DNA of 64,000 nucleotides from an uncultured Clostridia bacterium (GTDB lineage Bacteria; Bacillota; Clostridia; TANB77; CAG-508): assembly GCA_934141605.1 (NCBI GenBank), contig CAKPCL010000001.1, positions 90,730 through 154,729 on the forward strand, written 5' to 3'. The translations under genes were made by a program, and so were the position numbers. The notes under the pieces were generated by a model. It ran no database searches. It had not been told where the DNA came from and saw only the letters and a program-made list of their open reading frames with translations. Positions 326 through 62,113 of this stretch are shown here, in pieces; within the stretch, counting starts at the first letter, position 1; each line of letters begins with the position of its first letter.

Positions 326-2050
326 TTATTTTGTATAATATATTTCTCCATTTCCATATATTACTTGATAATATTGTCCTATAAATGTTGGTTCATTATT
401 GTTTAATTTATATGTTGGCTCTACTATGATTTTTCCTTCATTGTCTATAATTCCCCATTTATCATTTTGTTTAATTCCGGCAAAACCATATTTATTTATT
501 TCTGTAACTTTATCATATTTAAAGTCAATTATTTTTGTTCCTGATATATCTACAAATCCCCATTTGTTGTTTTGTTGTTTTGCAAATATTTTATTGTTTG
601 TATATACTTGTGTATTTTCTACTTCTTTTCCGTCTATTAGTATATATTTAGTTTCTTCGTCATTATATATTTTTAAATAGTTTTTGTTATTTTCAATTGT
701 AGCATCTTTTAATTCTGCTATTTTTTCCATTTTTGCTGAATATATTTCTGTCATTTTTGTTGAGTTATTTACGGCTTGCATCATTTGTGTATCTTCTATT
801 TTTTGAATTGAATTGTAGTTAAATTCAATTTTTGTTGTTTCTTCATTGTCTATAATTCCTAGTTTTCCATTTGTATTACATGCTATAAAGTAGTCTCCAT
901 ATAGGTGTTGGATATATGTATATTCTTTTTGTGTTATTTTTTCTTCATTTTTATAAATGCTGTATATTGTTTTTTCGTTTGCTGTTTCTATATGAATTTT
1001 GTAGTCTGTGTTGTTAACATCTATTATGGCTGTATTTTCGCTTATGTCTGTTTCTTGTCCGTTTTGGTCAAATACTTTTACTGTTTCATCATTTGTTTTT
1101 GCATATATATAGTTTCCTGTTATGTCTATTTGTTTATATTCTATTGGTACAATAATTTTTCCACTTATTGAAATTACGCCATATTTTTTTCCTTTTGTTG
1201 CTGTTATCGTGTTATTGCTTTCATTATAAATTAATGATTGATATTCATTGTCTATTATTTTTTTGTCATTTTTTAATAGTCCATATTTTCCATTTTCTGC
1301 ACATATTAAGTAACTGTCTTCACTGTTTATTCCTGTTATTCTATATAAATCATTGTATTTTACTTCTATTATTTCTTTTCCTTCTAGATTTACATATCCG
1401 TATCTATATCCTTCTTCTGTTGTTTCGCTTACTATATATGCTGATTTTTTATATCCTGTGCCTTCTTCGTAAAATTTATCTGCTTCTATTTTGTCATATT
1501 GAATTTTTACTAGTGTTGTTCCTTTGATGTTTATTACTCCGTATTTATTGTCTTTTTTTACTAGTAGTTCTCCTTCTTTTGTTTGTAGTGTGTCTATTTC
1601 ATCATATATTGCATTTGTTAATTTTTTTCCGTTTATGTCTATTATTCCATATTTTCCGTTTTGGCTATATTTTAATGTGCTTTTTTCGTACATTAAATCA
1701 CTATATACATTTTTTAGTCTTAATGGTTCTATGTTTTCGTATTGTGTATATATTTCTTCATTTTTTGAGTTTATGGTTTTTGTGCTGTTTTCTTCATAGC
1801 ATATAAATACATCTTTTTCTGGGTTTGGTATTTTTATGTCTTTATATTTTGCTTCTATTATTTTGTTTCCTTTTGTATCTATTACTCCATATTTTCCGTT
1901 TTCTTTTAGTACAAAGTATTTGTATTCTGATATTGTCTCTATTTCATATTTTCTGTTTTCTTTCTGGATTTTTTGTGTTGTGAAATATGCTGCTCCTGCT
2001 ATTATAATAATGCTCAATATTGATATAATTATTATATTTTTCTTTTTCAT
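326..2050 (-). CDS. WG-repeat (KWG-type) surface protein with N-terminal signal anchor
   Basis: 574 aa with more than 12 tandem ~35-40 aa repeats of the type GKYG(V/I)ID.KG..I.(E)PKYD.I; hydrophobic N-terminus MKKKNIIIISILSIIIIAG. Confidence 0.6.
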   Translation of the reverse strand: MKKKNIIIISILSIIIIAGAAYFTTQKIQKENRKYEIETISEYKYFVLKENGKYGVIDTKGNKIIEAKYKDIKIPNPEKDVFICYEENSTKTINSKNEEIYTQYENIEPLRLKNVYSDLMYEKSTLKYSQNGKYGIIDINGKKLTNAIYDEIDTLQTKEGELLVKKDNKYGVINIKGTTLVKIQYDKIEADKFYEEGTGYKKSAYIVSETTEEGYRYGYVNLEGKEIIEVKYNDLYRITGINSEDSYLICAENGKYGLLKNDKKIIDNEYQSLIYNESNNTITATKGKKYGVISISGKIIVPIEYKQIDITGNYIYAKTNDETVKVFDQNGQETDISENTAIIDVNNTDYKIHIETANEKTIYSIYKNEEKITQKEYTYIQHLYGDYFIACNTNGKLGIIDNEETTKIEFNYNSIQKIEDTQMMQAVNNSTKMTEIYSAKMEKIAELKDATIENNKNYLKIYNDEETKYILIDGKEVENTQVYTNNKIFAKQQNNKWGFVDISGTKIIDFKYDKVTEINKYGFAGIKQNDKWGIIDNEGKIIVEPTYKLNNNEPTFIGQYYQVIYGNGEIYYTK

Positions 2051-2398: not shown

Positions 2399-3070
2399 TT
2401 AAGTGCCATTATTTAGTTTTTCTATTCCTTGTATGCATCTTCTGTATTTTGGTTCATTTTCAACGCATGTTATTAGCGTTATTTTATTTTCTTTTGTGTT
2501 TTCTAAATCTTCCCAATCTGTATCTTTTATTATTTTGTTTTTAATAACTACATATGTTTTTTCAAAGTCATTATATTTATAAATGATTTCGTCTCCTTCT
2601 TGTAGTTCTTTAATTTTTGCAAAATAGTTTACTGCATATCCTCTATTATGTGCTGCCAGCCCTACATTTCCACTTTTTTTAGAGGTCTCTTCAAAATGAC
2701 CTACATATTTTTCCATTACTTCTTGTTCTGTGCCTTCAGATATGCTTGCTTCTAAAGATATTTTTGGTATTTTTATTGTCCAGTTTTTTTCTTTTGTTTG
2801 TATGTTGGAATAACTTTCTTCCTTTTTTGAATTTTCATTTTCTATATCTGTTTGATTATTTTGATTTTTGTTTTCTTCTTTTGTGTTTTGATTGATATTG
2901 TTTGAGCTTAATTCAACTAGTACTATATTTTTCTTGAATATATTAGAGAAAAGGTTAGCCTCTACTGTTTTAATTAAAGGTTGTATATTTAAATTTGTAA
3001 AAAAAATGTATATTAGTATTGTTATTATTAGGCTTATAATATCAACATATCTTTTGGTATAGCTAATCAT
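2399..3070 (-). CDS. Sortase family transpeptidase
   Basis: N-terminal signal anchor; catalytic-region motifs LAAHNRGY and TLITC; 223 aa. Confidence 0.75.
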   Translation of the reverse strand: MISYTKRYVDIISLIITILIYIFFTNLNIQPLIKTVEANLFSNIFKKNIVLVELSSNNINQNTKEENKNQNNQTDIENENSKKEESYSNIQTKEKNWTIKIPKISLEASISEGTEQEVMEKYVGHFEETSKKSGNVGLAAHNRGYAVNYFAKIKELQEGDEIIYKYNDFEKTYVVIKNKIIKDTDWEDLENTKENKITLITCVENEPKYRRCIQGIEKLNNGT

Positions 3071-3410: not shown

Positions 3411-4262
3411 TTATTCTTTTCTCCGTTCTACTTTTCCGTACTTCTCTTCCGCTTTTGTATTCCGCTTTTCTTCACCAATTTTCAAAGCTTCTTCTTTCGC
3501 ATCATATATCATACTATTAACATCTGACTCCCACAAATCCCTCATGTCTTCTAAATATTGGGCTTCTTTACTGGCTGTGAAATATTTTATTTCTACTTCT
3601 GCTTCTTTTATTATATTATTTTTTGTCTTTGCCATTTCTATTTCCCCCTTATCCGTATCGTCTATTACAGCTAGCCATTGATTTAGTTTATTATCCATGT
3701 CTCGCTTCTTTTCTCTAAATTTTGGTAGCTGTATATAGTATTCTTTTACGATACTATTTACTTGATAATCCCTATGGTTATTTAAGACTTTTACAGTATC
3801 TAATATGTATTCATCAAAGCCAAATAAATTATAGTCTAATATGTAAATTGCTACTACTTCTTTTGCGTCTTGATACTGTTCTCCTCTTGAAAAGTTTCTT
3901 GATATTGTTTTTGCTTCATAAATGTCGTTTCTTTGTTCTAGATTTTTTCTGTCTTTTACTTGCATTTCTACATTTACTATCATGCCATCATTTAAAGTGG
4001 CTTGTATGTCTAATCTTCCGCCTTTTTCTCTTGTGCTTAATTGTTCTAAATTTACTTCTTCTTTTATTTCTATTTTCGTTATTTCTATTTTTAATATCGA
4101 ATTTAAGAAGTCTATTAAATATTTTTCGTTCCCTTTTCTGCTAAAAAATGCTTTGAATATTATATCATTTTTTAGATTTAATTTTTTTCTAATTCTTGCA
4201 TTTGGTATTTTTTGTGTCATTGTTGCCTCCTTTATTATAACAAGTACTTTTACAAAATTCAA
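3411..4262 (-). CDS. Rpn-family recombination-promoting nuclease / PD-(D/E)XK transposase-like protein
   Basis: 283 aa; N-terminal IFKAFFSRKGNEKYLIDFLNSIL and overall architecture typical of the TIGR01784/Rpn family; paralogous to 27105-27740 and 53495-54313. Confidence 0.65.
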   Translation of the reverse strand: MNFVKVLVIIKEATMTQKIPNARIRKKLNLKNDIIFKAFFSRKGNEKYLIDFLNSILKIEITKIEIKEEVNLEQLSTREKGGRLDIQATLNDGMIVNVEMQVKDRKNLEQRNDIYEAKTISRNFSRGEQYQDAKEVVAIYILDYNLFGFDEYILDTVKVLNNHRDYQVNSIVKEYYIQLPKFREKKRDMDNKLNQWLAVIDDTDKGEIEMAKTKNNIIKEAEVEIKYFTASKEAQYLEDMRDLWESDVNSMIYDAKEEALKIGEEKRNTKAEEKYGKVERRKE

Positions 4263-4590: not shown

Positions 4591-5700
4591 CTACAAGTAT
4601 AAAATTGGCCTAAAGCCTAGGCTATTGTAGTTAACAAAATTGCTGTAGTTATAGCGAATGCTAGTGTAATTGCTGGCGCTGTTGAAAGAGCCTCCACGAT
4701 AGACACAAGGATGATCAGAACGGTTTGAAGTTTCTGTTGTAAATTCATATACATTACTTGCCATGTCATATATATTACATTTTACATCTACTGTTGTTCC
4801 TGTAGAAGAAAAAGATGAACTTACTGGAGTTTGTCTTGAATATTTTGTATTTGTACAATTTTGTATAAATAATATTGCTGTATCCCATGCATAGCTATTT
4901 ATTAAATCACTTGTAAATGGATTTGTATTATCATACATATTTTGCGCTTGTGTTGCTGCATTTGGTTGTGTTATGTTATTCCATACTGTATCCGTTTTTA
5001 CTTCTGTTAATTTTCCACTTGTTGCATTTTTTCTTGCTTCATATCTTCCTATATAGTATCCTCCATTTGTTGCCACACTTGTTTTAAAATCTGTTATACT
5101 TTTGGCTATAGTATTTCCTTTACTTGCAGTTTCGCTAAAATATGTGTCAACAACTTTTTCACCTTGTGCTGTTTCATTTCCACTTTCATCAAATGTATAT
5201 CTATCTAGATTTATAGTTGTTGTTGAGCCATCTGCTTTTGTTATTGTTCCTACTGGTACCCATACAAACTGGCTTCCATTTGTTGCTGTTGCTTTTCCTT
5301 CTAAATCTACTGTTGCATCTTCTACTACTATTCCTTTATCTACTGTTGTTGCATTGCTTGTTGTAGCATCTGATACTATTTTAAATCCTGCTGGTACTGT
5401 AAAAAGATTTCCCTTCGTATCTTTCAATACTGTATTTTTTGTTTTGCTTAAGACTGTATTAATTTTATCACTTGTTAATTCTTCTGCAATGTATCTATTT
5501 ATTTCTTGTTCATATGTTCCTAATATTGTTGCTTGATTTTGCGTTGCTTCTTTACTTTTCTGTTTTGCTTTTTGTGCTTGTGAAAATAAGCCTTGATTTG
5601 TCAAGGTTTGTATTGATATTCCGGCTAATATTAGCAATAAAATTACAGTTATTACTAAAGCTACTAATGTAATTCCTCTTCTTTCGTTTATCTTTTTCAT
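4591..5700 (-). CDS. Prepilin-like-leader surface protein with C-terminal FGE-sulfatase (SUMF1-like) domain
   Basis: N-terminus MKKINERRG|ITLVALVITVILLLILAG (class III/prepilin-like but lacking Glu+5); C-terminal motifs YDMASNVYEF, RGGSF and GFRP resemble the FGE-sulfatase hallmarks GNVWEW/RGGSW/GFR; RBS aggagg. Confidence 0.6.
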   Translation of the reverse strand: MKKINERRGITLVALVITVILLLILAGISIQTLTNQGLFSQAQKAKQKSKEATQNQATILGTYEQEINRYIAEELTSDKINTVLSKTKNTVLKDTKGNLFTVPAGFKIVSDATTSNATTVDKGIVVEDATVDLEGKATATNGSQFVWVPVGTITKADGSTTTINLDRYTFDESGNETAQGEKVVDTYFSETASKGNTIAKSITDFKTSVATNGGYYIGRYEARKNATSGKLTEVKTDTVWNNITQPNAATQAQNMYDNTNPFTSDLINSYAWDTAILFIQNCTNTKYSRQTPVSSSFSSTGTTVDVKCNIYDMASNVYEFTTETSNRSDHPCVYRGGSFNSASNYTSIRYNYSNFVNYNSLGFRPILYL

Positions 5701-5848: not shown

Positions 5849-6064
5849 ATGAAAACAAGAATTAAAGATTTAAGAGAAGATAAAGATTTAACCCAAAAAG
5901 AAGTAAGCCAATATTTAAACATATCCCAAGTAGCATATTCTTACTACGAAATAAATAAAAGAAGTATGCCATTAGAAATTCTTTCTAAATTGGCAGACTT
6001 CTATAATACAAGCACTGATTACATATTATATAGAACAAATGAAATAAAACCTTATAAAAAGTAA
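5849..6064 (+). CDS. XRE-family HTH transcriptional regulator
   Basis: 72 aa; helix-turn-helix LTQKEVSQYLNISQVAYSYYE; RBS aaggaga; divergent from the pilin-like gene; paralogous to 53202-53423. Confidence 0.7.
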   Translation: MKTRIKDLREDKDLTQKEVSQYLNISQVAYSYYEINKRSMPLEILSKLADFYNTSTDYILYRTNEIKPYKK

Positions 6065-18255: not shown

Positions 18256-19029
18256 TTATTTAACTTCTCTACACTTTACTATTATTCTTTCTTTACTATC
18301 ATCTGTACATGTAATTAATGTAACTTCTTTTTTACCTCCTGTTAGCTGTGTTGTATCATTTCTGTTATTAGGCTCTACACTATGTATATCATATACCTCA
18401 TATGTAATAGTTCTTTTGGTTAAATCAGTTAATTTTACAATATCCCCGACTTCTAAAGTTGGTACTTTACTAAAAAATTTAGAATTTCTATAATTATGTC
18501 CTGCAATGCAGAAGTTTCCTATTTCGTTCGGATCATATCCATGAAATTTAATTGGTGATATTTTTAATAATTCTTCCGTTTCTTTTACACTTCCAGTTTC
18601 TCCTTGCAATACTGAATATGTAAGATTTATTTTTGGAATTTCTATTTTTGCAATAATTTTATATCTATATCCGCTTGATGATGTATATACTTCAGCTTTT
18701 TCGTTCATGCTAGCTACGGTTAAAGCTTCGCTTTCTTTTTCTTGTTCTTTATTATTATTTTCCTCTGTTTCGTCTAATATTACTAAAAGTATGTCATCTT
18801 CTAGTATTGTAGGGTCTTTTTCAGTAGATGTTAAAGTTTGATTTATCTTTTTTAGTATTTGTTTTGATGTTTGTTCCCCTTTATTTCTGTCATATTCTGC
18901 ATAGACATATAAAGAAGCTAGGACAATAACCAAAAAAATAGATATGATAAAATTAAATTTGTAAACTTTCTTTTTTTGTTTTAATTCTGGTGTTACATAT
19001 AATTTTTCGGTAACTAAAATTTGATTCAT
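18256..19029 (-). CDS. Sortase family transpeptidase
   Basis: Signal anchor, CIAGHNYRN and TLITC motifs; paralogue of 2399-3070. Confidence 0.75.
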   Translation of the reverse strand: MNQILVTEKLYVTPELKQKKKVYKFNFIISIFLVIVLASLYVYAEYDRNKGEQTSKQILKKINQTLTSTEKDPTILEDDILLVILDETEENNNKEQEKESEALTVASMNEKAEVYTSSSGYRYKIIAKIEIPKINLTYSVLQGETGSVKETEELLKISPIKFHGYDPNEIGNFCIAGHNYRNSKFFSKVPTLEVGDIVKLTDLTKRTITYEVYDIHSVEPNNRNDTTQLTGGKKEVTLITCTDDSKERIIVKCREVK

Positions 19030-21962: not shown

Positions 21963-22322
21963 TTACATTATTTGCTTTATATGATTAACATTAAATTTTC
22001 CATTTTTAATTAAAACTTCAACAACATCAAACCTAATAAAATTATCTAGCATTTTATTTTTATATAAAAAATATTTTGCAGTTCTATACATATGTTTTTG
22101 TTTTATCATATTAACTGCTTCAGAGGGTTGTCCAAAATCTAAACTACTTCTTGTTTTTACTTCAATAAAAACAATTTCTTTCTTGTCTTTTGCTATAATA
22201 TCTATTTCTCCTTGTTTGCAGTAAAAGTTTCTTTTTAAAATTTTGTAATTATGTTTTTCTAAATGCTCTACTGCTATTTGTTCTCCTATATTTCCTAGTT
22301 CTTTTTTTATATGTATTTTCAT
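21963..22322 (-). CDS. YraN/UPF0102 family endonuclease
   Basis: GEQIAVEHLEKHNYKILKRNFYCKQGEIDIIAKD...FIEVKTR. Confidence 0.8.
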   Translation of the reverse strand: MKIHIKKELGNIGEQIAVEHLEKHNYKILKRNFYCKQGEIDIIAKDKKEIVFIEVKTRSSLDFGQPSEAVNMIKQKHMYRTAKYFLYKNKMLDNFIRFDVVEVLIKNGKFNVNHIKQIM

Positions 22323-23185
22323 TTTTTCCTATAATTGTTTCCCGGAAGTGATACAATCTTGTCTTGTAATTCAAGTAGCATTAATTTATAGCTTACTTCA
22401 TTTATGCTTAAATTTAATTTTTTTGCTATTTCATTTATATGAATAATCTTTTCGTAATCTAGGCAATTGTAAATTTTTTGGAATTCTTCACCAACTAAAA
22501 CTTCTTTTTTGATTTTTTTAATACTTTTTTTCTTTAATTTTAATTCGGGATATTTTTTTATAATGTCTTCGACTTCTGTTACTAGAAAAGCTCCTTCTTT
22601 TATTAATTTGTTTGGAGTTATGCCTTTAGTGCTTTCTAAACTAGATGGAATACAAAATACATTTTTCCCTTGTTTTTTTGTTATTTTAGCTGTTACGCTT
22701 GTACCACTTCTGTATCCTCCTTCTATTACTAAAGTTCCTATTGCAAGTCCACTCACAATTCTATTTCTTTCTAAAAATTTTTGTGAACTTGCTCTTTCGT
22801 TTTCTTCATATTCTGTTACAAGTAATCCATTGTTTTTTAATATACCTTTCCACAATTTTTCGTTTTCTTGTGGATAAATGTTTTTTAGTCCACTTGGCAA
22901 TACGGCTATTGTTTTTCCTGTGCCTTCTATGCTTCCAATATGTGCGAAGCTATCTACTCCTATTGCCAAACCACTTATTACTGTTAGTCCATATAGGCTT
23001 AATTCTTTTGCGAACTTTTTTGCATTTTTCTTGCCATATTCTGTACATATTCTTGAACCAATTACTGCTATTCCGGGTTCATTTATCAATTCTATATTTC
23101 CTTCTAAATACAGTTGTTTTGGTGGATTTTCTGTATTTTTTAAATTTTCTGGATAGTTTTTGTCTTCTAATGTTATTTTTATCAA
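22319..23185 (-). CDS. dprA: DNA-processing protein DprA (Smf)
   Basis: Rossmann-like DprA core AVIGSRICTEYGKKNA...GLAIGVDSFAH; overlaps its neighbours by 4 nt. Confidence 0.9.
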   Translation of the reverse strand: MIKITLEDKNYPENLKNTENPPKQLYLEGNIELINEPGIAVIGSRICTEYGKKNAKKFAKELSLYGLTVISGLAIGVDSFAHIGSIEGTGKTIAVLPSGLKNIYPQENEKLWKGILKNNGLLVTEYEENERASSQKFLERNRIVSGLAIGTLVIEGGYRSGTSVTAKITKKQGKNVFCIPSSLESTKGITPNKLIKEGAFLVTEVEDIIKKYPELKLKKKSIKKIKKEVLVGEEFQKIYNCLDYEKIIHINEIAKKLNLSINEVSYKLMLLELQDKIVSLPGNNYRKK

Positions 23186-24720
23186 AATTTATCACCATAT
23201 TTTCTATCTAAACTTCTATATTGGATTGCTTCCAATAAATGCTGTTTTTCTATATTGTTTTTTTCTTCCAAATCTGCTATTGTTCTAGCAACTTTCAAAA
23301 TTCTTGAATAGGCTCTCGCACTTAATCCTAATTTGTTAAATGCTAATTCTAATATTTGTTTACATTCATGATTTAAAACACAATATTTTTCTAACATTTG
23401 TGTTGTTAATTCAGAATTTGAATATATTTTTTCGTTTCTGTATCTTAAAAATTGTATTCTTCTAGCTTTATTTACTCTTTCTTTTATTTTTTTTGAGCTT
23501 TCTTCTGTATTTTGAGAGTCTAGTTTTTTATATTTTACTGGCTTAACTTCTACATGCAAGTCAATTCTATCTAATAAAGGTCCACTAATTCTATTTAGGT
23601 ATTTTTCTATTGCTGTTTTGGAACAGCTGCATTCTTTTTCCGTGCTTCCATAATATCCACATGGACATGGGTTCATACTTGCAATTAGCATGAAGTTTGA
23701 TGGATATATTACTTTTGAATATAATCTTGATATGCTGATATTTCTGTCTTCTAATGGTCCTCTTAAAACTTCTAATGTACTTTTATTAAATTCTGGTATC
23801 TCATCTAAAAATAGTACTCCATTATGTGCTAAACTTATTTCTCCTGGTCTTGGTATTTTTCCGCCTCCTATCATTGATGTTAAAGATATTGTATGATGTG
23901 GGTTTCTAAATGGTCTTTTTGTTGCTATTCCTATATCATTGTCTAATATTCCTGATATACTATGTATTTTGGTTACTTCCAGTGCTTCTTCAAATGTTAA
24001 ATCTGGTAATATAGTTGGCATCCTTTGTGCAAGCATAGTCTTTCCTGCCCCTGGTGGGCCAATTAGTATACAGTTATGTCCTCCTGCTGCTGCAATTTCT
24101 AATGCTCTTTTTACATTTTCTTGTCCTTTTACTTCACTAAAATCTTTTTCATTTTTCCCCTCTCTATTAAATTCTTTTAATATATTTATTCTTATAGGCT
24201 TTATTTCAATTTTTTTATTTAGGTAATCTACTACTTCTTTTAAGTTTTTTACTCCTATTATTTCTATATTTTTTATAACAGCTGCTTCTCTTTCATTAGA
24301 TTTAGGTAAAATTACCCTTTTTATTCCTAAGTTCATTGCTTCTATACACATTGGTAGGACACCATTTATTCGGTTTACTTTGCCGTCTAATGATAATTCG
24401 CCTATAAATATTGTATTTTCCAAATTATCTATTTCTATTTCTTTTAGTGCTTGTAAAATTCCTACAGCAATTGGTAAATCATAGCTCGTTCCTTCTTTTC
24501 TTGTACTTGCTGGTGCTAAATTTATTATAATTTTTCTGCTAGGAAATTCTATTTTTGAATTCTTTATGGCTGTTTTTATTCTTTCTTTTGATTCTTTTAC
24601 ACTTGTGTCTGGAAGTCCTACTATTTCAATATTAGGTATTCCTCCAGATATGTCAGTTTGGACTTCAACTAAATTTCCGTCTATTCCGTTTAAAGATATA
24701 GTTTTAATATTTGATGTCAT
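23182..24720 (-). CDS. yifB: YifB/ComM family Mg-chelatase-like AAA+ ATPase
   Basis: N-terminal Lon-like domain, Walker A GPPGAGKT, C-terminal ChlI-like region. Confidence 0.9.
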   Translation of the reverse strand: MTSNIKTISLNGIDGNLVEVQTDISGGIPNIEIVGLPDTSVKESKERIKTAIKNSKIEFPSRKIIINLAPASTRKEGTSYDLPIAVGILQALKEIEIDNLENTIFIGELSLDGKVNRINGVLPMCIEAMNLGIKRVILPKSNEREAAVIKNIEIIGVKNLKEVVDYLNKKIEIKPIRINILKEFNREGKNEKDFSEVKGQENVKRALEIAAAGGHNCILIGPPGAGKTMLAQRMPTILPDLTFEEALEVTKIHSISGILDNDIGIATKRPFRNPHHTISLTSMIGGGKIPRPGEISLAHNGVLFLDEIPEFNKSTLEVLRGPLEDRNISISRLYSKVIYPSNFMLIASMNPCPCGYYGSTEKECSCSKTAIEKYLNRISGPLLDRIDLHVEVKPVKYKKLDSQNTEESSKKIKERVNKARRIQFLRYRNEKIYSNSELTTQMLEKYCVLNHECKQILELAFNKLGLSARAYSRILKVARTIADLEEKNNIEKQHLLEAIQYRSLDRKYGDKF

Positions 24721-27104: not shown

Positions 27105-27740
27105 TTATTCCATTTTTTCTTCAATCCAATATTTCTCAGCTAAATTATCTAATAATTTTATATATGGATTTTTGTTTTTTATTTTTTCTAATGTTTCATT
27201 TTCACAACCTTTTAAATATGATATCCACTCCTCTTTAGGAGTTAAGTTGTCTGAATTTTTAGGTTTGAATTTTAGTAGTTCTATTGTATACATTTCTAGT
27301 TCTTCTAGTCTAACATTTCCTTCGTTTGTTTTTATTTTTATTATTTTATCATAGTCTTTTGATGAAAAATAATTAAAGTCTATAAAGTTAATTGTTATTG
27401 TTTTTGCAAATTCTCTTTTGTCTTTGTATTCTAACTGATTTAAATGTATTTGTGCATAGTATATTAACATTTTTGTTTGCACATATATTCCGTCAATAAA
27501 TTGTATCCCTACATTTATTTCTTCATTTTCGTCTGTTTTTATTCTAACATCTGCAATCCCAAAATTTTCTTCTTTTGGAAGGTATTGTGATTTTTCTTTA
27601 AGATATGGGTTTAATGAAATATTTTCTATTGTGATATTTAGAATTGATTCTATAAGATTTTTTAGAATACTTAAACAATCCTTATTATTTAGTATTTTTC
27701 TAAGGACATAGTTACTATTTGAAATGAATTTTTTATTCAT
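27105..27740 (-). CDS. Rpn-family / PD-(D/E)XK nuclease-family transposase-like protein (short paralogue)
   Basis: 211 aa; similar in architecture to 3411-4262 and 53495-54313 (conserved D...E.K core around GIADVRIKTDENEEINVGIQF). Confidence 0.5.
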   Translation of the reverse strand: MNKKFISNSNYVLRKILNNKDCLSILKNLIESILNITIENISLNPYLKEKSQYLPKEENFGIADVRIKTDENEEINVGIQFIDGIYVQTKMLIYYAQIHLNQLEYKDKREFAKTITINFIDFNYFSSKDYDKIIKIKTNEGNVRLEELEMYTIELLKFKPKNSDNLTPKEEWISYLKGCENETLEKIKNKNPYIKLLDNLAEKYWIEEKME

Positions 27741-29505: not shown

Positions 29506-32500
29506 TTACATTTTTATTTCTATATTATAAATTCCATTATCTTGTAATTTTATAGAATTTTCAACTTTCTCACCATTTAGTGTTACTTCTTCTACTCCTG
29601 AATTTTTATTATTTGGATTTTTAACAGTAATATTATAAAAAGCATTTTTCCATTTATATTTAATATTATATTCTTTCCAGTCTTTTGGGATACATGGTTC
29701 TATACTCATGGTTTGGTTTCTTATTTTTAGTCCTAAAATGAATTCAATTCCTGCTTTATAGTACCAACTTGCTGAGCCTGTATACCATGTCCAACCGCCT
29801 CGTCCTGCTAAGTTTCCTGCTCCGTAAATATCAGCTGGTATAACATATGGTTCAACTTTGTATTTGTTACTTGCTTCTTTTGTTCTTGAGTGTTCAATTG
29901 GATTTATCATCCTATATGCTTCTGTTGCTTTGTCTCCAAATCCTAGCATGGCTTCTGCTATTATTACCCAACAGCTGGCATGTGTGTATTGACCACCATT
30001 TTCTCTAACACCCGGCAAATATGACTTAATATATCCCGGTTCTAATTTTCCTCTTTCAAACGGAGGATCTAATAATTTTATTATTCCATTTTCTTTATCT
30101 ATTAAATGATTTTCAAGACTCTCCATTGATATATACTTTTTATCATTATCTCCTGCATTTGATATAATACTCCAGCTTTGTGCTATACTATCTATCCTAC
30201 ACTCATCATTAACCATACTTCCAAGCACATTGCCATTGTCCATAAAAGCTCTTTTAAACCATCTTCCGTCCCAACCATTTGTATTTAATGCTTTCTTTAG
30301 TTGTTGCATTATTAGCTCATATCTTTTTATTTGTTCTTCAAAATTTGAAACTTCATAATTTTCATTTGATATAATCCATTTATTTTGCTCTATAATAGTT
30401 TTCATTATATCTATAAATCTATTTAATACATTATATAGGAAAAATCCAAGCCATACACTTTCTCCAATTCCTTTAGATCCAACTTTGCTGAAGCCGTCGT
30501 TCCAATCTCCACTTCCTATTTTAGGAAGCCCATTTTTTCCAAAGTTTAAACTTCTTTCTATTGCCTTTATACAATGTTCAAATATAGTTCCTTCTTCTTT
30601 CGTAAATTCAAATTTATCATACCTTTCATCTTCATTTTCTTTTAAAGTTTCTCCTATTAAATACGGAGTTTTTTCTTCTAATATTGAATAATCCCCTGTA
30701 AATTCAATATATTCACAAGTCACATATACAAGCCATAATAAGTCGTCTGAGAATTTTGTCCTTATTCCTCTTCCTGTTTCTTCATGCCACCAATGTTCAA
30801 CATCTCCTTCTATAAATTGATGTTTGCTGTGTTTTATAATTTGATGTTTTAAGAAGTCTGGATTTATATATTTTAGTGCTATTGTGTCTTGCAATTGGTC
30901 TCTGAAGCCATATGCTCCTCCAGATTGATAATATCCTGTTTTTGCTAAAAGCCTACTTTGTATTGTTTGGTATATATCCCACCCATTTAAAATAATGTTC
31001 ATTGATTCTAGTGGTGTATATATTTGTAATTTTCCTAATAAATTTTTCCAGTAATTTTTAACATTTTCTAGTTCTTGTCTACAATTTTGGATTTTACTGT
31101 ACTTATATGCCATATTTTTACTGTCAATTGTTGTTTCTTCTGCTCCTAGCATGAAGGTTATCTCTTTTTCTGATAAACTTTCAAGCTCAACTTCAATTTC
31201 ATAAGCTACACAGGCCTTTTTTCCTATGCTATTTTCATTATTTAAATTTGTTTTCCTTAACGCATCTGGGTTCGATAAGTTTCCGTTTCCTAAAAAGAAT
31301 TTTTTATCTCCTGTATAACTTATTATTTTTTCACTATTTGATACATAAATAATGTCATCACTGAATTCACTATTGTATAAATTTTGAACGCAAATTATAT
31401 TGTTGTTTTTGTCATGTGTTAGGTTTATATAGCCGTCTGATTTTAGTTCATTTTCGCCTAAAACTGGTTTCATGTAATATATTATTTTTAGTTTTTTTCT
31501 GGTTAAGCTCATATTTTTTAGTTTTAGAATTCCTATTTTTATGCTATCTTCTTTTGGTACAAATACTTCTAATTCTTGTTCTATATCATCACTTTTGTGA
31601 ATATATTTTATATATCCAAATCCGTAAATGACATTATAATTTTTGTCATCTGGCATAGGGTTTAGTCCAAGTGACCAAGCCTTTTTTGTCTCTAAATCTT
31701 TTAAATATATTATTTCTGATGGTATATCATATGTTGCTTCATTTTCCCATGAGCTTATTCTATTTAATCTACAATTTTTATACCATGTATATCCACCCAT
31801 ATTTTCTGTCATAAGCGTTCCAAATTTTTCGTTTGCCATAATATGTGACCAAACTGTTGGAAGCCTGTTCTCTGCGTTAGTTTTTATTAAATATTCTTTT
31901 CCGTCTTCTGAAAATGCTCCATATTCATTGTAATATTTAAGTTTTTCAGTATTTTGTAAAATGTCTATATTGTCAGTATTTTCAGCTTCTATTGTTATAT
32001 TTTCTATTTCATTTTCAACATTTTTGTATTTTTCTAAATATTCTTCTTCTATTTCTTTAATAGAATTTTCTAATCCTCCTTTGCTACTGTCTATGGTTAC
32101 TTTCGCTACAAATTCTAATAGTTCTAAATCTTCTTTACTTATTTCATTTCTTGAAAGTTCAAAAATTCCTCCTCTTATGTTTTTTAAATATGCCATTTGA
32201 CTATTTAAAATCATTCCTTCTATTTCTTCTCTTGTATAATTTTCATAACTGTGTTTTTCTTCGTCTATAATTACAAGTTCTACTTCAAAGTTTTTAGTTC
32301 TTATAAATTCATAAGCTTTTAATATTTCTTTTACAACATATGCTTCATTAACATTTTTTACTTTAACTAAAATTATTGGTATATCTCCTGAAATTCCATA
32401 TTTCCATAGTTCACTTTGTGAATATTTTCTTTTTGGTAATTTATCTAAATTTGTCTTTTTATTAGGATTGCTAAATATAATGTATGATAGTATTTTTTGA

Positions 32501-32769
32501 TAGTTTCTTATTTGAGTTCCTTTTATTCTTAAATATCTACTTTGTGCTTCATTTTTTGCTTTTGATAGTTCAAATGCTTTTTGTATATTTTCTTCTATCT
32601 TATATTTTTTGATATTTTCTATTACTTTTTCTTTATTTTCTCCCACTGAAATAATTAAATTGATTGTTGCTTTTTGATTTGCTTTTATTTTCATTGTTCT
32701 TTTTAGTGCTAATATTGGTTCTGTGACTAATCCTATTTTTTTAGAAAATGGACTAGAGTTTTTTACCAT
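29506..32769 (-). CDS. Cyclic beta-1,2-glucan synthase homologue, C-terminal part (GH94 glycoside phosphorylase-like domain)
   Basis: 1087 aa; resembles the GH94 (cellobiose-phosphorylase-like) region of ChvB/NdvB (YQSGGAYGFRDQLQD); probably one gene with 32753-37645, split by a frameshift. Confidence 0.6.
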   Translation of the reverse strand: MVKNSSPFSKKIGLVTEPILALKRTMKIKANQKATINLIISVGENKEKVIENIKKYKIEENIQKAFELSKAKNEAQSRYLRIKGTQIRNYQKILSYIIFSNPNKKTNLDKLPKRKYSQSELWKYGISGDIPIILVKVKNVNEAYVVKEILKAYEFIRTKNFEVELVIIDEEKHSYENYTREEIEGMILNSQMAYLKNIRGGIFELSRNEISKEDLELLEFVAKVTIDSSKGGLENSIKEIEEEYLEKYKNVENEIENITIEAENTDNIDILQNTEKLKYYNEYGAFSEDGKEYLIKTNAENRLPTVWSHIMANEKFGTLMTENMGGYTWYKNCRLNRISSWENEATYDIPSEIIYLKDLETKKAWSLGLNPMPDDKNYNVIYGFGYIKYIHKSDDIEQELEVFVPKEDSIKIGILKLKNMSLTRKKLKIIYYMKPVLGENELKSDGYINLTHDKNNNIICVQNLYNSEFSDDIIYVSNSEKIISYTGDKKFFLGNGNLSNPDALRKTNLNNENSIGKKACVAYEIEVELESLSEKEITFMLGAEETTIDSKNMAYKYSKIQNCRQELENVKNYWKNLLGKLQIYTPLESMNIILNGWDIYQTIQSRLLAKTGYYQSGGAYGFRDQLQDTIALKYINPDFLKHQIIKHSKHQFIEGDVEHWWHEETGRGIRTKFSDDLLWLVYVTCEYIEFTGDYSILEEKTPYLIGETLKENEDERYDKFEFTKEEGTIFEHCIKAIERSLNFGKNGLPKIGSGDWNDGFSKVGSKGIGESVWLGFFLYNVLNRFIDIMKTIIEQNKWIISNENYEVSNFEEQIKRYELIMQQLKKALNTNGWDGRWFKRAFMDNGNVLGSMVNDECRIDSIAQSWSIISNAGDNDKKYISMESLENHLIDKENGIIKLLDPPFERGKLEPGYIKSYLPGVRENGGQYTHASCWVIIAEAMLGFGDKATEAYRMINPIEHSRTKEASNKYKVEPYVIPADIYGAGNLAGRGGWTWYTGSASWYYKAGIEFILGLKIRNQTMSIEPCIPKDWKEYNIKYKWKNAFYNITVKNPNNKNSGVEEVTLNGEKVENSIKLQDNGIYNIEIKM

Positions 32770-51135: not shown

Positions 51136-53097
51136 TCATTTAATTTTGTATCTTTGATTGTCTAGCTTATAATTTAATTCTATTTCTTCTTTGCTTAATA
51201 GCCTGTCATATATCCTTACTGATTTTATTTTTCCTCCAAAATAGCAATGGGCATCTGGCCATACATCTCCACCTACATAATAAGTTTCCCTATCTCTTCC
51301 TAAAGAGAATATATTTGCTTTCCAACCGCTTTCTTCCGCAGTATCTTCATTTATATAGGTATTTCCACCATCTACATATATATAATTTTTAGTCAAATCA
51401 CTTCCAAATGATATTGAATTTAATTGATTCAAATAAATTTTATTTTGAGGTATATTATATATTTTATTACCAAAATATACTGAATTGCATCTTGATGTAC
51501 CATCATTTATTTCTGATGCCCACAATAGATATGGTGGTGATGTTTTGTTTACTTGATGTCCTCCCAAGTCCAATATATTTCCATATTGTGATTTAGTGGT
51601 TTCTGAAATAATCTCAATTGTTGCACTGTGATTGTTTCCAATTCCATTAAATAATGGATTTGTTGTTGTCATATAATCATCTACACCATCAAATATTATT
51701 CCGTCGCTTATCCAACCACTGTCAGAATTATAATTAAAATTGTATAATGGCATATCATTTCCATTTCCACTTATATCTTTCCAAGTTGATGTTGTATTGC
51801 TATGTCCATTTCCTGTATTATTTATTCCGTCATAATGCACAACTAGTCCTTCTTGTATATATCCCGGATATGCGTTCACAGCATTTGTTATTATAACATT
51901 TCCTGCATTATCTTCTGCTTTCATTTTTATATTATAAGTTTGTGCATATGTTAAATTGTCAAATATGTAAAAATTGCTATTGTTCGTTACCCATGTTGTA
52001 CCATTATCTTTACTGAAATAATATTGTTTAATCTCACTTTTTTCATATTTTTCAGTAGCCTCTTTGTCAGTTGTTTTTCCAGTTACTTTTAAACTTGTTA
52101 TAGTATTAGTTTCAACTGTTGGTGTAAAGTCTTTTGGAGCTAGTTTATCTATGTTTGTTACATTGCCTGTGGCTGAACCGCCATAATTTTTTCCGTCGTA
52201 TAATGATACATAAATTTTTCCGTTCTCCGTAAAAACTTGACTTGCTGTGTCTTCCCAGTTCTTACCGTCTTTACTTGTTTGTAATTTATATCCTGTTATA
52301 TCTGTATTTAGTGTTGCTGTTACTGTTACAGCCTTATTTGTCCATGTTTCTTTATTAATCTCTGTTCCATCGACTGTATATGTAAATATTATATCTCCTT
52401 CTTCTATGCTTGGTACACTTCCAACTATTATATCTTTTGTTACTTCCGCTGTTTGCTTATTTTCTGCTATTGCTTCTACTTTTATACTATATGTTTTATT
52501 TTGTTTTAATCCTGTGTATGTATATGTTTCTTCTGTTGTTGTTTCTTTTTCTGTATACTTTTCTTCATTTTCTGCTTTTATATAGTATTTTATTTTTCCG
52601 CCTTGATTTCTCCATGTTTTTACTTGTACTGTTATTGAGTTTGTTGTTGATGTTGCATTTACTATTTTTATTATTGGTGGAAATTTTCCTTGTTCTCCTA
52701 TAAATTCTATCCCTTTTAGTGAAACCTTATATACATCTTTGTCTACTATTACATAAAAATATATTTCTATTTCTTCTCCGTCTTCCTCTGTACTTGTTTC
52801 TTCTACTGTTACTTCTTTTCCTATTTCTTTTAGCTCACCTATATTTTTATTTACATCTTCTCTTGTTGCTTTTATTATTTTTTCTGCACTTCCTGTTGAA
52901 TTTAGCATTTGTTGTGTTAATAGCTTTAAGTTTAGATATTCTGAAACTTGTGCTCTTTTATTTTCTAGTTCTGCTCTTTTGGCACTTTCAAATATTCCTG
53001 TTCCTGTCATTGCTTGTATTGATATTCCTGCCAGTATTAGCATTAATATTATTGTTATTACTAGTGCTACTAATGTTATACCTTTACTTTGTTTCAT
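51136..53097 (-). CDS. Prepilin-like-leader surface protein with FN3/Ig-like and C-terminal LamG (concanavalin-like) domains
   Basis: MKQSKG|ITLVALVITIILMLILAG leader (ATG 53097, RBS aaaggagg); middle FN3-like TYSIKVEAIAENK; C-terminal LamG signature SVRIYDRLLSKEEIELNY. Confidence 0.6.
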   Translation of the reverse strand: MKQSKGITLVALVITIILMLILAGISIQAMTGTGIFESAKRAELENKRAQVSEYLNLKLLTQQMLNSTGSAEKIIKATREDVNKNIGELKEIGKEVTVEETSTEEDGEEIEIYFYVIVDKDVYKVSLKGIEFIGEQGKFPPIIKIVNATSTTNSITVQVKTWRNQGGKIKYYIKAENEEKYTEKETTTEETYTYTGLKQNKTYSIKVEAIAENKQTAEVTKDIIVGSVPSIEEGDIIFTYTVDGTEINKETWTNKAVTVTATLNTDITGYKLQTSKDGKNWEDTASQVFTENGKIYVSLYDGKNYGGSATGNVTNIDKLAPKDFTPTVETNTITSLKVTGKTTDKEATEKYEKSEIKQYYFSKDNGTTWVTNNSNFYIFDNLTYAQTYNIKMKAEDNAGNVIITNAVNAYPGYIQEGLVVHYDGINNTGNGHSNTTSTWKDISGNGNDMPLYNFNYNSDSGWISDGIIFDGVDDYMTTTNPLFNGIGNNHSATIEIISETTKSQYGNILDLGGHQVNKTSPPYLLWASEINDGTSRCNSVYFGNKIYNIPQNKIYLNQLNSISFGSDLTKNYIYVDGGNTYINEDTAEESGWKANIFSLGRDRETYYVGGDVWPDAHCYFGGKIKSVRIYDRLLSKEEIELNYKLDNQRYKIK

Positions 53098-53132
53098 CTT
53101 TTGTGGTCCTCCTTTTATAATATCTATATCAA

Positions 53133-53168
53133 TTTTACACGCGTTGCGTGTAAAAGTCAATACGCGTA
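53133..53168. promoter_or_regulatory. GC-rich perfect palindrome (putative operator) between the pilin-like gene and its divergent XRE regulator
   Basis: ttttacacgcgttgcgtgtaaaa (10-bp arms) at 53133-53155 plus a second tacgcgta at 53161-53168, in an otherwise AT-rich intergenic region. Confidence 0.5.
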
Positions 53169-53201: not shown

Positions 53202-53423
53202 ATGAAACTAAGAATTAGAGATTTAAGAGAAGATAAAGATTTAACGCAAGCAAAACTTGCTGAATTATTAGGTTGTACTCAACAGACTTATTCTAGATAT
53301 GAGTCTGGTGAAATAACTATTGATATATATAATTTAGCAAAATTGGCAGAATTTTATGGAACTTCTTGTGATTATTTATTAGGAATAACTGATATTTCTA
53401 AGCCTTATAAAAAAACAAGCTAG
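53202..53423 (+). CDS. XRE-family HTH transcriptional regulator
   Basis: ~50% identical to 5849-6064 (MKLRIRDLREDKDLTQ...DYLLGITDISKPYKK). Confidence 0.7.
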   Translation: MKLRIRDLREDKDLTQAKLAELLGCTQQTYSRYESGEITIDIYNLAKLAEFYGTSCDYLLGITDISKPYKKTS

Positions 53424-60038: not shown

Positions 60039-60223
60039 AATTTTCCTCCTTAGGATTTTAAAAAACACTCATTTTTTATGTATATATAATACAACGAAAA
60101 GGGTTAAAAGTCAATTATTTTTACAGGAATATTTCAAAAATATTACAATTTTTTTACAAGTTTTATTGTTGTGTTTTTGATTTTAAAAAAGAATTAAGCT
60201 TTTACTTAATTCTTTTTGTTTTT

Positions 60224-62113
60224 CTAGTATAGTGCTGTACGGAAACCTAAATAGGAATCTGTCTGTTTATAATTAAAATTAGCACGAAATGACATTGTAT
60301 TATAATTATAGTAATGGTATAGACTGCCTCCTCTGGTTGAAGTTGGTGCTGTTATAGAAGAACTTTTTTCTAATGTCCACTCAAATTCATTTCCTGCCAA
60401 ATCATATATATTTAGTTTATTTGTTTGTTCTGATGCTCCGGTCGTTAATAGTTGTTGATAATTTCCATCATTTGATGTTTTTGAAGATATTACATAATTA
60501 GTTGTATCTATATTGTATTCTGTCCATTTTGTTGTGCTTCTTGGATTTGTATTATATTTTCCTCTAACTAAAGTTAAACTATTATTTCTATAATTTCCCC
60601 AACCTGTGCAACTTGATTTTATCTCTTTTTTTGTTAAATCTGAATTCTTTTCTAAGAATTTGCATGTTAAGTCCCATTGTATCCCAAATAACAAACTACT
60701 TGTCTTGTTTGTACCTGTATCAATTTCACTTGATAGCTTTTGTGCTTGACTACATGTAACATAATTATATGGTATTTGATTAACTTTACTTACTGCTGTT
60801 CCTGTTGTTCCGCTACTGCTTGTCCTTGTTGTGTTACTTGCTGTTGATGTGGCATCTCCTATTTCATATCTTGATATCCAAAATCCACAATTTGTATATA
60901 TGCTACTTAACATTGTTTTGTATGTCGTTTGATATTCATTATATGTCAATCCACACCCGTTATTTAATTTTTTTTGTGTCTCAGTTAATCCTGTTGTGCT
61001 TGCTGTTACTAAAGTACTACCATCAATAGCATACCATTCATCATTCCAATCGCACCCTTGCCCTTCCTTTCCTTCTCTATAATCTGTTGCATATGATATT
61101 AAATCAGCTTTTATATTATCATAATCATCTGCCTTTGTTGCTCTTACAAATACTGTTTTTGGTACTTCAACCCATACCCATTCATTATCATTTTTATCTT
61201 TTACAACAAGTCCATTCTCTATAATATTCATTGTAGGAGACATACTTACGCTAAAACCTTCTGGAATTGTTACTGTATCACCTTTTACATCTTTGTATTC
61301 AGTTTCTTTTGTATATGCTTCAGACCACTTTTCTTCATCAATTACTACATATTGAACTTTTCCTTCTGAATTTTTAAAATATCCTTTGTATGTGTTTACA
61401 CTTTTCAAAAATTCATATTCTTTTTGGCTATTATTTAAAGTAATTCCTGTTGGTATTTGTGTTATTTGTTCTGTCTGTTCTATCCATATATATTGATTTG
61501 TGTTATTTACATTTATTTTTTCATCTTGTGTATTTGATATTACTATAGTTCCATTAGTTTTTCCTATGTAATAATAACCATCTGGTATTAAAATTCCTTC
61601 AATATATCTTAAATCTATGGTAGTTTCGTCTGGTTCTGTATAATCTGTATAATATGTTTCAGTAGAAGTGTCATTTTGAATTTCTATTCCTTTTACATAG
61701 AATATATTATGGCTATTTTCATTGATTATATATAAATCTGTATAGTCATTAGCATTTTCTTTGTCTTTTTTTACTTTTTCATAGTCTTTTCCATAGTTTA
61801 ATGTGATTCCTTTCATTGCTTCTAAATCAATTACATAAAAATCACCCGTGTCATTTTTGCTACTTAATACTTCTGATATTGAATCTATATTTGTATATTT
61901 TATTTCTGCTGGTAATTTGCCATACTCATTATAATATGTTGATATTTTATCTCTTAATAATTCTAAGTCATTGTAAAAGTTTGTTAGTTTGTTAATGTTT
62001 AGACTACTTTGTGTATTATTAATCATTATGCCTGTTAATATTAATAATGTTATAACTGTTATTACTAATGCTGTCATCGTTATTCCTTTTTCTTGTCTTA
62101 ATTTAAACTTCAT
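60224..62113 (-). CDS. Prepilin-like-leader surface protein with C-terminal FGE-sulfatase (SUMF1-like) domain
   Basis: MKFKLRQEKG|ITMTALVITVITLLILTG leader (ATG 62113, RBS aaggaga); C-terminal YDLAGNEFEWT, RGGSL, GFRTALY motifs. Confidence 0.6.
   Translation of the reverse strand: MKFKLRQEKGITMTALVITVITLLILTGIMINNTQSSLNINKLTNFYNDLELLRDKISTYYNEYGKLPAEIKYTNIDSISEVLSSKNDTGDFYVIDLEAMKGITLNYGKDYEKVKKDKENANDYTDLYIINENSHNIFYVKGIEIQNDTSTETYYTDYTEPDETTIDLRYIEGILIPDGYYYIGKTNGTIVISNTQDEKINVNNTNQYIWIEQTEQITQIPTGITLNNSQKEYEFLKSVNTYKGYFKNSEGKVQYVVIDEEKWSEAYTKETEYKDVKGDTVTIPEGFSVSMSPTMNIIENGLVVKDKNDNEWVWVEVPKTVFVRATKADDYDNIKADLISYATDYREGKEGQGCDWNDEWYAIDGSTLVTASTTGLTETQKKLNNGCGLTYNEYQTTYKTMLSSIYTNCGFWISRYEIGDATSTASNTTRTSSSGTTGTAVSKVNQIPYNYVTCSQAQKLSSEIDTGTNKTSSLLFGIQWDLTCKFLEKNSDLTKKEIKSSCTGWGNYRNNSLTLVRGKYNTNPRSTTKWTEYNIDTTNYVISSKTSNDGNYQQLLTTGASEQTNKLNIYDLAGNEFEWTLEKSSSITAPTSTRGGSLYHYYNYNTMSFRANFNYKQTDSYLGFRTALY

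Follow-up and report, generated by a model that had tools for sequence, protein, structure and literature searches.

The largest class of targets of diversity-generating retroelements (DGRs) consists of proteins of the FGE-sulfatase family (FGE, formylglycine-generating enzyme) with a C-terminal variable region of CLec (C-type lectin) kind; TvpA is the type example, and the class includes proteins with tandem domains and remote targets, documented at more than 100 kb from the reverse transcriptase (RT) (PMC5758913). Cellular DGR targets mostly carry an N-terminal membrane segment together with binding domains (PMC8144416), and a G-type pilin domain has only rarely been noted among them (PMC11661182). 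Here we describe the gene p1 and its paralogues p2 and p3, which lie in a stretch of 64,000 nucleotides (the window; contig CAKPCL010000001.1 of assembly GCA_934141605.1, positions 90,730 to 154,729) from an uncultured, low-GC, spore-forming gut Clostridium. Probably, though not with certainty, p1 encodes a surface binding protein that sits on a pilin-like N-terminus and whose lectin-fold head has been written by a DGR.

With TvpA from Treponema denticola (2Y3C; "category b", Wu et al. 2018, PMC5758913) p1 appears to share an FGE-type C-lectin fold that lacks the catalytic residues of FGE, a variable region that takes up the last ~45 residues and ends just before the motif GFR, and a set of residues and codons that goes back to AAC and AAT. 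The p1 family also resembles the TvpA class in that paralogous targets are scattered far from an RT and that some members have tandem FGE domains. However, TvpA is a spirochaete lipoprotein, whereas p1 begins with a pilin-like N-terminus of the class III type, and the p1 family differs further from the TvpA class in that the DNA examined yielded neither an RT or Avd nor a template repeat and that of the Pfam model only the C-terminal half can be recognised. PorK and GldK, lipoproteins of the FGE-sulfatase family that belong to the type IX secretion system (T9SS), are the best match of the p1-type head among solved structures and are also non-catalytic, but they are T9SS ring components of Bacteroidota, are not hypervariable and are absent from Firmicutes.

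For the N-terminus the counterparts are found among pilins. PilB and PilC from Streptococcus sanguinis (Raynaud 2021, PMC8179133; Shahin 2023, PMC9934059) are built like p1 to p3 from a class III-type N-terminus, a short linker and a binding module; LamG/ConA-like (PF13385) and FN3 domains are among the commonest modules of modular pilins, as in p2, and a location at the filament tip has been proposed for subunits that are bulky or lack Glu at position +5 (Glu5). PilB and PilC, however, have kept Glu5, the globular pilin moiety, a place in the pil operon and recognition by IPR012902, whereas p1 to p3 have Ala5, are scattered and stay below the threshold of the Pfam model N_methyl. Class III signals that have degenerated, lack Glu5 and are missed by standard tools are known from the GspK/PilK "K" subunit and from S. 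sanguinis PilA (PMC9934059); these are single genes in operons for pili or the type II secretion system, whereas the leader considered here has Ala5 fixed throughout a superfamily with 1,000 or more clusters. DGR-diversified, pilus-associated adhesive parts have also been described from gut bacteria for the type V pili of Bacteroides (bioRxiv 10.1101/2024.11.15.621889), which differ in pilus type, in belonging to diderms, in the protein families involved and in that their DGR cassettes have been identified.

In the mechanism that we propose a variant class III (prepilin-type) signal would insert p1 into the membrane, presumably with the leader inside and all the rest outside, and a prepilin peptidase may then cleave after Gly9, a step whose chances we regard as about even. 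A predicted polar helix of ~30 residues would act as a stalk for residues 87–369, the putative non-catalytic FGE-sulfatase/C-type-lectin-fold head, and the last ~45 residues, in which ~23 positions would be rewritten by the DGR, would form the ligand-binding face. For the rewriting, an error-prone RT would copy a template repeat rich in AAC and AAT, err only at adenines, and the resulting cDNA would replace the variable region; the outcome of such retrohoming would be NNC and NNT codons and a set of residues without K, E, Q, M and W. The cassette would be located remote from p1. The paralogues mount other heads on the same N-terminal module, namely FN3 plus LamG in p2 and, behind a full pilin-like module, an FGE-like head without DGR signature in p3.

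The N-terminal module

A preliminary description of the window had listed three paralogous genes with a shared leader (Table 1), and open reading frames, ribosome-binding sites and a motif scan agree on them: all three reading frames are on the minus strand, each ATG is preceded by a good Shine-Dalgarno sequence, and a six-frame scan finds exactly three copies of the leader motif in the window, which has a GC content of 27.3%. The proteins start with MKKINERRG/ITLVALVITVILLLILAGISI (p1), MKQSKG/ITLVALVITIILMLILAGISI (p2) and MKFKLRQEKG/ITMTALVITVITLLILTGIMI (p3), the slash marking the putative processing site, and in each of them position +5 is Ala. By pairwise BLASTP p1 and p2 are 57% identical over the first 49 residues (E = 9e-15) and have no similarity past the first ~50; p1 and p3 have in common the leader (E = 1e-7), a beta-subdomain (p1 87–221, p3 268–417; E = 3e-8) and a C-terminal motif block (E = 2e-9). 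The leader codons of p1 and p2 (n = 24) show 8 synonymous and 3 non-synonymous differences, and it is therefore the peptide itself that is under selection, recent gene conversion being an unsuitable explanation.

A profile of 45 columns from the three leaders, searched against 1.84 billion representatives, had its match always at the N-terminus; at E ≤ 1e-10 there were 1,012 matching representative clusters, and at E ≤ 1e-3 their number rose to 25,495. Among the best 150 representatives Gly(−1) is present in 100% and K/R(−2) in 79%, the median leader has 9 residues, and I+1, T+2, L+3, A+5, L+6, T+9 and G+18 are each found in 85–98%; the residue at +5 is Ala in 96%, Ser in 2%, Thr in 1% and Glu in 0%. 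The first 30 mature residues of these 150 matches are nearly invariant and the proteins are elsewhere unrelated (mean column identity 7%). The polar helix contains T-x-x-G-(L/I)-F-x-x-A, a motif kept throughout the superfamily, and the domains found behind the leader are F5/8 type C, Big_2, FN3, ricin-B, LRR, DUF285, DUF6273, Flg_new, GLUG and FGE-sulfatase. The ~650 kb of related DNA that we collected contain 24 distinct Ala5 leaders. The relatives of p1, none of which has a name, number at least 6,569; they occur only in metagenome-assembled genomes (MAGs) labelled uncultured Clostridia or Clostridium and were solitary genes among housekeeping genes in every case examined. The architecture, which the preliminary description had considered unusual, is thus a frequent one. 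The combination of an FGE C-lectin domain with an N-terminal membrane segment is the commonest class of cellular DGR targets (PMC5758913, PMC8144416). A full-text literature search returned no paper containing the leader peptide.

The same description had likened the leader to a prepilin signal without Glu5, and pilin profiles agree with this. A profile of the p1 family matches the PilA-N pilin of Geobacter (9egp) with E = 1.9e-3 and in register (KG/FTLIEL versus KG/ITLVAL); for a profile of the p3-type N-module the match to the same pilin reaches E = 8.6e-6 over 64 residues, including the amphipathic half of alpha-1, and that to a second Geobacter pilin (7tgg) E = 6e-4. Profile alignments in register were also obtained with PilA, MshA and PilE1, and 47 of the 55 p1 orthologues match N_methyl (PF07963) at E ≤ 0.01, with 19.9 bits as the best score. 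The AlphaFold2 (AF2) model of residues 1–200 of p3, calculated with 75 homologues, has a mean pLDDT (predicted local distance difference test) of 81.8 and consists of a helix from 13 to 64, which in the presumed mature protein would be +3 to +54, that is followed by beta strands. Homologues of this module are mostly stand-alone proteins of 130–340 residues. In p1 and p2 a globular pilin domain is absent. From these alignments we conclude that the leader is a shared N-terminal module of predicted extracellular binding proteins, homologous to the class III signal known from type IV pilins and with Ala fixed at +5.

It has to be considered that the N-terminus could simply be an uncleaved signal-anchor, which would make p1 to p3 type II membrane proteins with an inherited anchor and the head at the membrane or the wall, with neither a peptidase nor a filament being involved; we hold this to be a real possibility, if short of an even one. 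A basic N-terminus and a hydrophobic helix of 21 residues fit such an anchor, and for most cellular DGR targets the published description is simply that of an N-terminal transmembrane domain (PMC8144416). Four results weigh against the pilin part of our proposal, and the first two are also points in favor of the signal-anchor. Firstly, N_methyl gives p1 and p2 only 12.2–13.2 bits versus a cut-off of 21.2 and does not match p3, and the pilin models of NCBIfam gave only E ≥ 0.06 for the three proteins. Secondly, pilus genes were not seen in the window, its flanks or the related DNA: T2SSE, T2SSF and Peptidase_A24 are annotated neither in the window, as had been stated before, nor in ~10 kb past each end of it, and in the ~650 kb of related DNA there was neither a canonical GFTLxE pilin nor a T2SSE Walker motif. 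Thirdly, p1 to p3 lack Glu5, and fourthly, Foldseek of the p3 N-module versus the PDB yielded only insignificant matches to pilins and pseudopilins. On the other hand, a generic anchor needs hydrophobicity and not a near-invariant Gly(−1), I+1, T+2, L+3, A+5, T+9 and G+18 across more than 150 otherwise unrelated clusters. The significant profile similarity to pilin alpha-1, which extends into the amphipathic half, and the synonymous divergence, which indicates selection on the peptide itself, speak against it as well.

At the other end of the scale p1 could, as the preliminary description had suggested, be a modular minor pilin of the type IV kind that is cleaved after Gly9, is loaded first for want of Glu5 and has its head presented at the tip, be it of a type IV pilus or of a Com-type pseudopilus. 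We consider this conceivable but doubtful; it is compatible with diversification of the head by a DGR. Besides the homology of the N-terminus to pilins, it has in its favor that the sequence-specific conservation over 30 residues is far above the need of a plain anchor, that the p3 model is pilin-like in combining a helix with a sheet, that pilins lacking Glu5 (GspK/K subunit, S. sanguinis PilA) cap filaments (PMC9934059), that pilins of the modular kind, with ConA-like, FN3 or further modules, occur widely (PMC9934059, PMC8179133), and that p2 resembles S. sanguinis PilC in its succession of pilin moiety, Ig-like module and lectin module. Against it stand the lack of PilB, PilC and PilD genes in the window plus ~20 kb of flanks and beside ~25 distinct homologue loci, the occurrence of the genes as single ones scattered among housekeeping genes, the missing globular pilin domain of p1 and p2, the fact that none of the top 150 leaders has Glu5, so that no major pilin is in sight, and the presence of several paralogues per genome, which would compete for one tip.

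An even more speculative thought, and one to which we give rather little credit, is that uncultured low-GC gut Clostridia possess a lineage-wide display system in which a fixed class III signal without Glu5 (KG/ITLVALVITIIILLILAG) places exchangeable heads of lectin or adhesin type at the tip of a type IV-type filament, a remote DGR rewriting part of these heads. Thousands of scattered genes carry the signal, and genes of the p3 type keep a fixed place beside minD. Such proteins would be DGR-diversified tip adhesins of type IV pili in a monoderm, a view that is to be regarded as equally speculative.

Cleavage of a Sec signal peptide by signal peptidase I is unlikely, the hydrophobic tract having 21 residues and no A-x-A site being seen after it on inspection of the sequence. 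Some members of the family with tandem FGE heads (P0121, P0127, P0128 and P0142; loci L035 and L036) have another N-terminus, e.g., MKFIEKLKKSEQGSVTIYVLSVTICVILILLSIF, which is reminiscent of TadE and pseudopilins and contains no Glu; the heads have therefore been combined with anchors of different kinds.

The variable region

The key feature of p1 was overlooked in the preliminary description: the last ~45 residues form a hypervariable region of the DGR type. NNC codons account for 17 of the last 42 codons before GFRP (40%) and for 17 of 319 elsewhere in the gene (5%; Fisher p = 3e-9), NNY codons for 86% versus 33% in the rest, and the GC content is 0.40 versus 0.31. Of the residues K, E, Q, M and W there is only one in the 42 positions, as compared to 19% in the remainder of the protein. 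The NNC signature is also found in orthologues or paralogues, at the loci L017 (p = 7e-15), L010a (p = 9e-18), L001, L006, L008 and L014; it is absent from p3 (12% versus 8%, p = 0.37), from p2 as a control (12% versus 7%) and from L009, L012, L013 and L016. A sliding scan for NNC over the whole window was dominated by antisense frames.

Variability within the family was assessed with 115 p1-like proteins that have a terminal segment of 52 residues, among which 70 distinct segments occur. Their consensus, NxxEWTTETxxxSxxPCVxRGGxxxxxxxxTSxRxxxxxxxxxxxxGFRPLL, has 23 hypervariable columns amid invariant scaffold positions. The residues seen in these columns are S, N, Y, D, G, I, F, T, R, V, L, H, A and C; K, E, Q, M and W make up 1.6% there versus 28.2% at equally variable columns of the protein body. 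Terminal segments are less than 75% identical in 67 of the 214 pairs with bodies that are at least 97% identical; P0182 and P0210, for example, have 100% identical bodies and terminal segments that are 69% identical. Another case is locus L035, which encodes a protein with two tandem heads (P0128). Between its two variable regions there are 18 differences in first, 17 in second and 1 in third codon positions, and all of their invariant codons are identical, synonymous sites included, whereas the bodies of the two domains differ at 19, 17 and 22 sites (Fisher p = 1.1e-4) and a control gene at 16, 22 and 35.

The variable region of p1 thus bears the signature of adenine mutagenesis, and because of the 18/17/1 pattern of L035, the NNC and NNT codons and the near-absence of K, E, Q, M and W we regard it as a product of adenine-specific mutagenic retrohoming. 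It should be mentioned that the pattern was read indirectly, from codons and from the comparison of variable regions, and not from a template repeat. Searches for the retroelement itself were made with a custom template-repeat scan, in which mismatches were allowed only at adenines, and with a scan for the DGR RT motif GxxxSQ...YxDD. Their results weigh against a DGR as the author of the head, as do some strain comparisons. No template repeat was found in the window or in the loci of 22 genes with a variable region (~650 kb at the first scan), nor in the later loci for the variable regions of L035, the only ones re-scanned there; the RT motif was found neither in the window nor in the ~650 kb of fetched loci; the RVT family was not annotated in any of the contexts examined, and no DGR cassette adjoined the family genes at the ~25 loci examined. 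An initiation-of-mutagenic-homing (IMH) element was not identified. Furthermore, P0001, the sole 99%-identical orthologue of p1, has five substitutions in the body and an identical variable region, and nine strain variants of the P0100 type have one common variable region. Since near-identical strains keep identical variable regions, current activity of a DGR at the p1 locus is not shown, and since neither a template repeat nor an RT was found, p1 must be a remote target or a relict, with the cassette being remote, on another element or lost. Some members of the family, including p3, look as if they had decayed as DGR targets.

Hypervariability could in principle have arisen without a retroelement, by ordinary diversifying selection or by recombination among paralogues. 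The missing RT and template repeat, the variable regions that stay identical in near-identical strains of two lineages, and the lack of the codon signature in p3, L009, L012, L013 and L016 can all be cited for this explanation, which we nevertheless judge improbable. Ordinary divergence hits third codon positions most, as in the control gene, which is the opposite of what is seen in L035; there, synonymous sites of the invariant codons are identical as well. In addition, NNC codons are enriched 8- to 10-fold in a genome with 27% GC, and the residues used are those that adenine mutagenesis of AAC and AAT can yield.

A short stem-loop, GCCTAGGCTTTAGGC (4608–4622, minus strand), covers the S-L-G-F-R codons exactly where the variable region ends on its 3' side; the orthologue at L017 does not share it. 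An origin of p1 from a prophage or phage was rejected since DNA and protein searches revealed no relatives in the viral contigs of IMG/VR or in GenBank phages.

The head domain

Residues 87–369 of p1 are considered one domain that is homologous to residues 268–629 of p3, because BLASTP finds both the beta-subdomain and the C-terminal block in common. The preliminary description had assigned to these two proteins a divergent C-terminus of the FGE-sulfatase type, an assignment with which the motifs YDMASNVYEFT/YDLAGNEFEWT, RGGS and GFR, all present in the FGE-like copies, are in accordance. The support from hidden Markov models that it had asked for comes from the family level: 34 of the 55 p1 orthologues match PF03781 at E ≤ 0.01 (best E = 1.5e-7), and several members of the family score above the gathering cut-off (24.7–37.9 bits versus 23.3), whereas p3 remains below it (19.6 bits). 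The matches are always restricted to model positions ~150–252, i.e., to the C-terminal ~100. A profile of 16 diverse head domains found among solved structures PorK/GldK (9e-6), TvpA (2y3c; 2.4e-3), SUMF2 (3.5e-3) and FGEs (0.06–0.2).

Three results weigh against this assignment in the case of p1 itself: PF03781 does not match it; its AF2 model has a pLDDT of 64.5 overall and of less than 50 over residues 314–362; and Foldseek of this uncertain model versus the PDB gave nothing at E ≤ 0.001. The lack of matches is put down to the uncertainty of the model. We attribute both the weak model scores and the uncertain AF2 prediction at the head to the DGR-type hypervariable region there.

The two catalytic cysteines of human FGE (SUMF1) are located in the segment after RGGS. 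On inspection, this segment reads RGGSFNSASNYTSIRY in p1 and RGGSLYHYYNYNTMSFR in p3, neither with a Cys pair, and in the family the equivalent of the catalytic segment is hypervariable. The head of p1 is consequently taken to be non-catalytic, and comparison at the family level identifies residues 87–369 as a putative FGE-sulfatase/C-type-lectin-fold head of this kind. That p1 is an active FGE (sulfatase maturase) or another enzyme of the FGE family, as the PF03781 matches of the orthologues and the profile matches to SUMF1 and SUMF2 might suggest, can be dismissed almost completely, since the catalytic Cys pair is absent from the segment after RGGS (FNSASNYTSIRY), the match covers only the C-terminal ~100 profile positions, the equivalent of the catalytic segment coincides with the hypervariable part, the protein is predicted to be located outside the cell, and the best relatives in the PDB, PorK/GldK and TvpA, are non-enzymatic.

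For p2, the FN3 and LamG domains named in the preliminary description are retained, with 24.1 bits for fn3 (cut-off 25) and 26.9 bits for Laminin_G_3 (cut-off 27.6). A role in binding or adhesion, as suggested there, is a sensible reading of all three proteins.

Significance

FGE/CLec-class DGR targets and modular pilins are both of known kinds. What appears to be undescribed is the fixed Ala5 class III-like leader on a superfamily of at least 1,000 clusters in uncultured gut Clostridia, the pairing of this leader with lectin heads written by DGRs, and the complete separation of such targets from any DGR cassette; a link between DGRs and a prepilin-type signal was not found among the top-ranked literature matches. 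If our interpretation is correct, a very large and wholly unannotated superfamily of uncultured gut Clostridia would be explained as surface binders on a near-invariant pilin-like N-module, and a sizeable subset of it would have binding sites that are written by DGRs at a distance. DGR surveys that require an RT beside the target miss remote targets, by their own statement (PMC8144416). The codon signature, i.e., local enrichment of NNC and NNY, lack of K, E, Q, M and W, and differences in the ratio 18/17/1, detects orphan targets even where a template repeat is missing. In the field of pili, thousands of modular proteins with a fixed Ala5 leader would mean either an extension of the idea of the modular tip pilin or a re-use of the class III signal as a general display anchor in monoderms.

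Genomic context

Table 1. Coordinates of p1, p2 and p3, of their parts and of two adjacent regulator genes (positions refer to the window)
Feature	Position	Strand	Remarks
p1, coding sequence	4591..5700	-	369 aa + stop; pilin-like leader, polar helix, FGE/C-lectin-type head with hypervariable C-terminus
p1, basic leader MKKINERRG	5674..5700	-	Gly(−1) at its end
p1, hydrophobic tract of 21 residues, ITLVALVITVILLLILAGISI	5611..5673	-	alpha-1N-like; +5 is Ala, not Glu; in register with KG/FTLIELLIVVAIIGILAAIAI of solved pilins
p1, polar helix	5497..5589	-	aa 38–68, between membrane segment and head; AF2 pLDDT ~65
p1, putative divergent non-catalytic FGE-sulfatase/C-type-lectin-fold domain	4594..5442	-	aa 87–369; homologous to p3 268–629
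p1, DGR-type variable region	4618..4749	-	aa 318–361, from NV[Y]EFTTET to just before GFRP; codon and residue signature
p2	51136..53097	-	653 aa; leader and helix as in p1, followed by FN3-like repeats and LamG/ConA-like domain
p3	60224..62113	-	629 aa; complete pilin-like module (aa 1 to ~165), then FGE-like domain (aa 268–629)
p3, pilin-like module	61619..62113	-	leader, continuous helix of 52 residues (aa 13–64), then beta strands
XRE-type HTH (helix-turn-helix) gene	5849..6064	+	open reading frame; HTH_3 family; divergent, immediately upstream of p1
XRE-type HTH gene	53202..53423	+	divergent from p2; paralogue of the HTH gene beside p1

The window is part of a 181-kb ENA metagenome scaffold that belongs to a spore-forming Firmicute. 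The annotated neighbors in the window are the housekeeping genes sigA, dnaG, adhE, ksgA, dprA, a gene for a penicillin-binding protein, ruvA, aspS, dus, rodA, minE and minD. The HTH genes beside p1 and p2 are mutually paralogous (MKTRIKDLREDKDLTQ... and MKLRIRDLREDKDLTQ...), and loci of homologues, e.g., L017, have no HTH gene; the arrangement suggests a two-gene cassette of regulator and surface protein. Upstream of p2 there is a promoter-like site at 53132–53160 (minus strand) that consists of TTGACT, a spacer of 17 nucleotides and TAAAAT (10 of 12 matches). The spacer contains the perfect, GC-rich palindrome TACACGC-AAC-GCGTGTA (53136–53152), which is conspicuous at 27% GC and is likely to be the operator for the adjacent HTH protein. 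Three genes for Rpn-like PDDEXK_2/Transposase_31 proteins are present, at 3411–4262, 27105–27740 and 53495–54313 (all minus strand), two of them directly beside p1 and p2. In the relatives L024 and L032, YdcC follows directly after Dus; in the window a sigma factor gene, a gene for a protein of 330 residues, a Transposase_31 gene, the HTH gene and p2 are inserted between the two, and p2 therefore lies in a variable insertion.

The location of p3 is conserved, in the order Peptidase_M23, Peptidase_M50, pilin-like gene, MinD, MinE, RodA and Dus. This slot was compared in the window (60224–62113 together with 59247–60068, 62173–62829 and 62878–63861) and in the loci L021–L025 and L032–L034. The four homologues of the p3 N-module that were sampled in other MAGs (167, 190, 301 and 332 residues) all occupy it, and only the copy in the window has an FGE-like domain. 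The slot is the usual position of minC, and the MinC family was not annotated in any of the loci with this slot. That p3, upstream of minD, substitutes for MinC was rejected, since the protein is predicted to be almost wholly extracellular with a cytoplasmic tail of 9 residues.

Two sortase genes at 2399–3070 and 18256–19029 (both minus strand), the first with a gene for a WG_beta_rep protein of 574 residues beside it (326–2050, minus strand), indicate that the organism also has a conventional sortase-based surface display; an LPXTG motif is absent from p1 to p3. At 22319–24720 (minus strand) dprA adjoins a gene for a ComM-like Mg-chelatase, a competence-associated pair; a Com-type pseudopilus might therefore be encoded in another part of the genome, and pilin-like leaders could be processed by it. 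Two large adjacent genes at 29506–37645 (minus strand) encode proteins of 1,630 and 1,087 residues with GH94 and glycoamylase domains, which resemble cellobiose/chitobiose phosphorylases or cyclic beta-1,2-glucan synthases.

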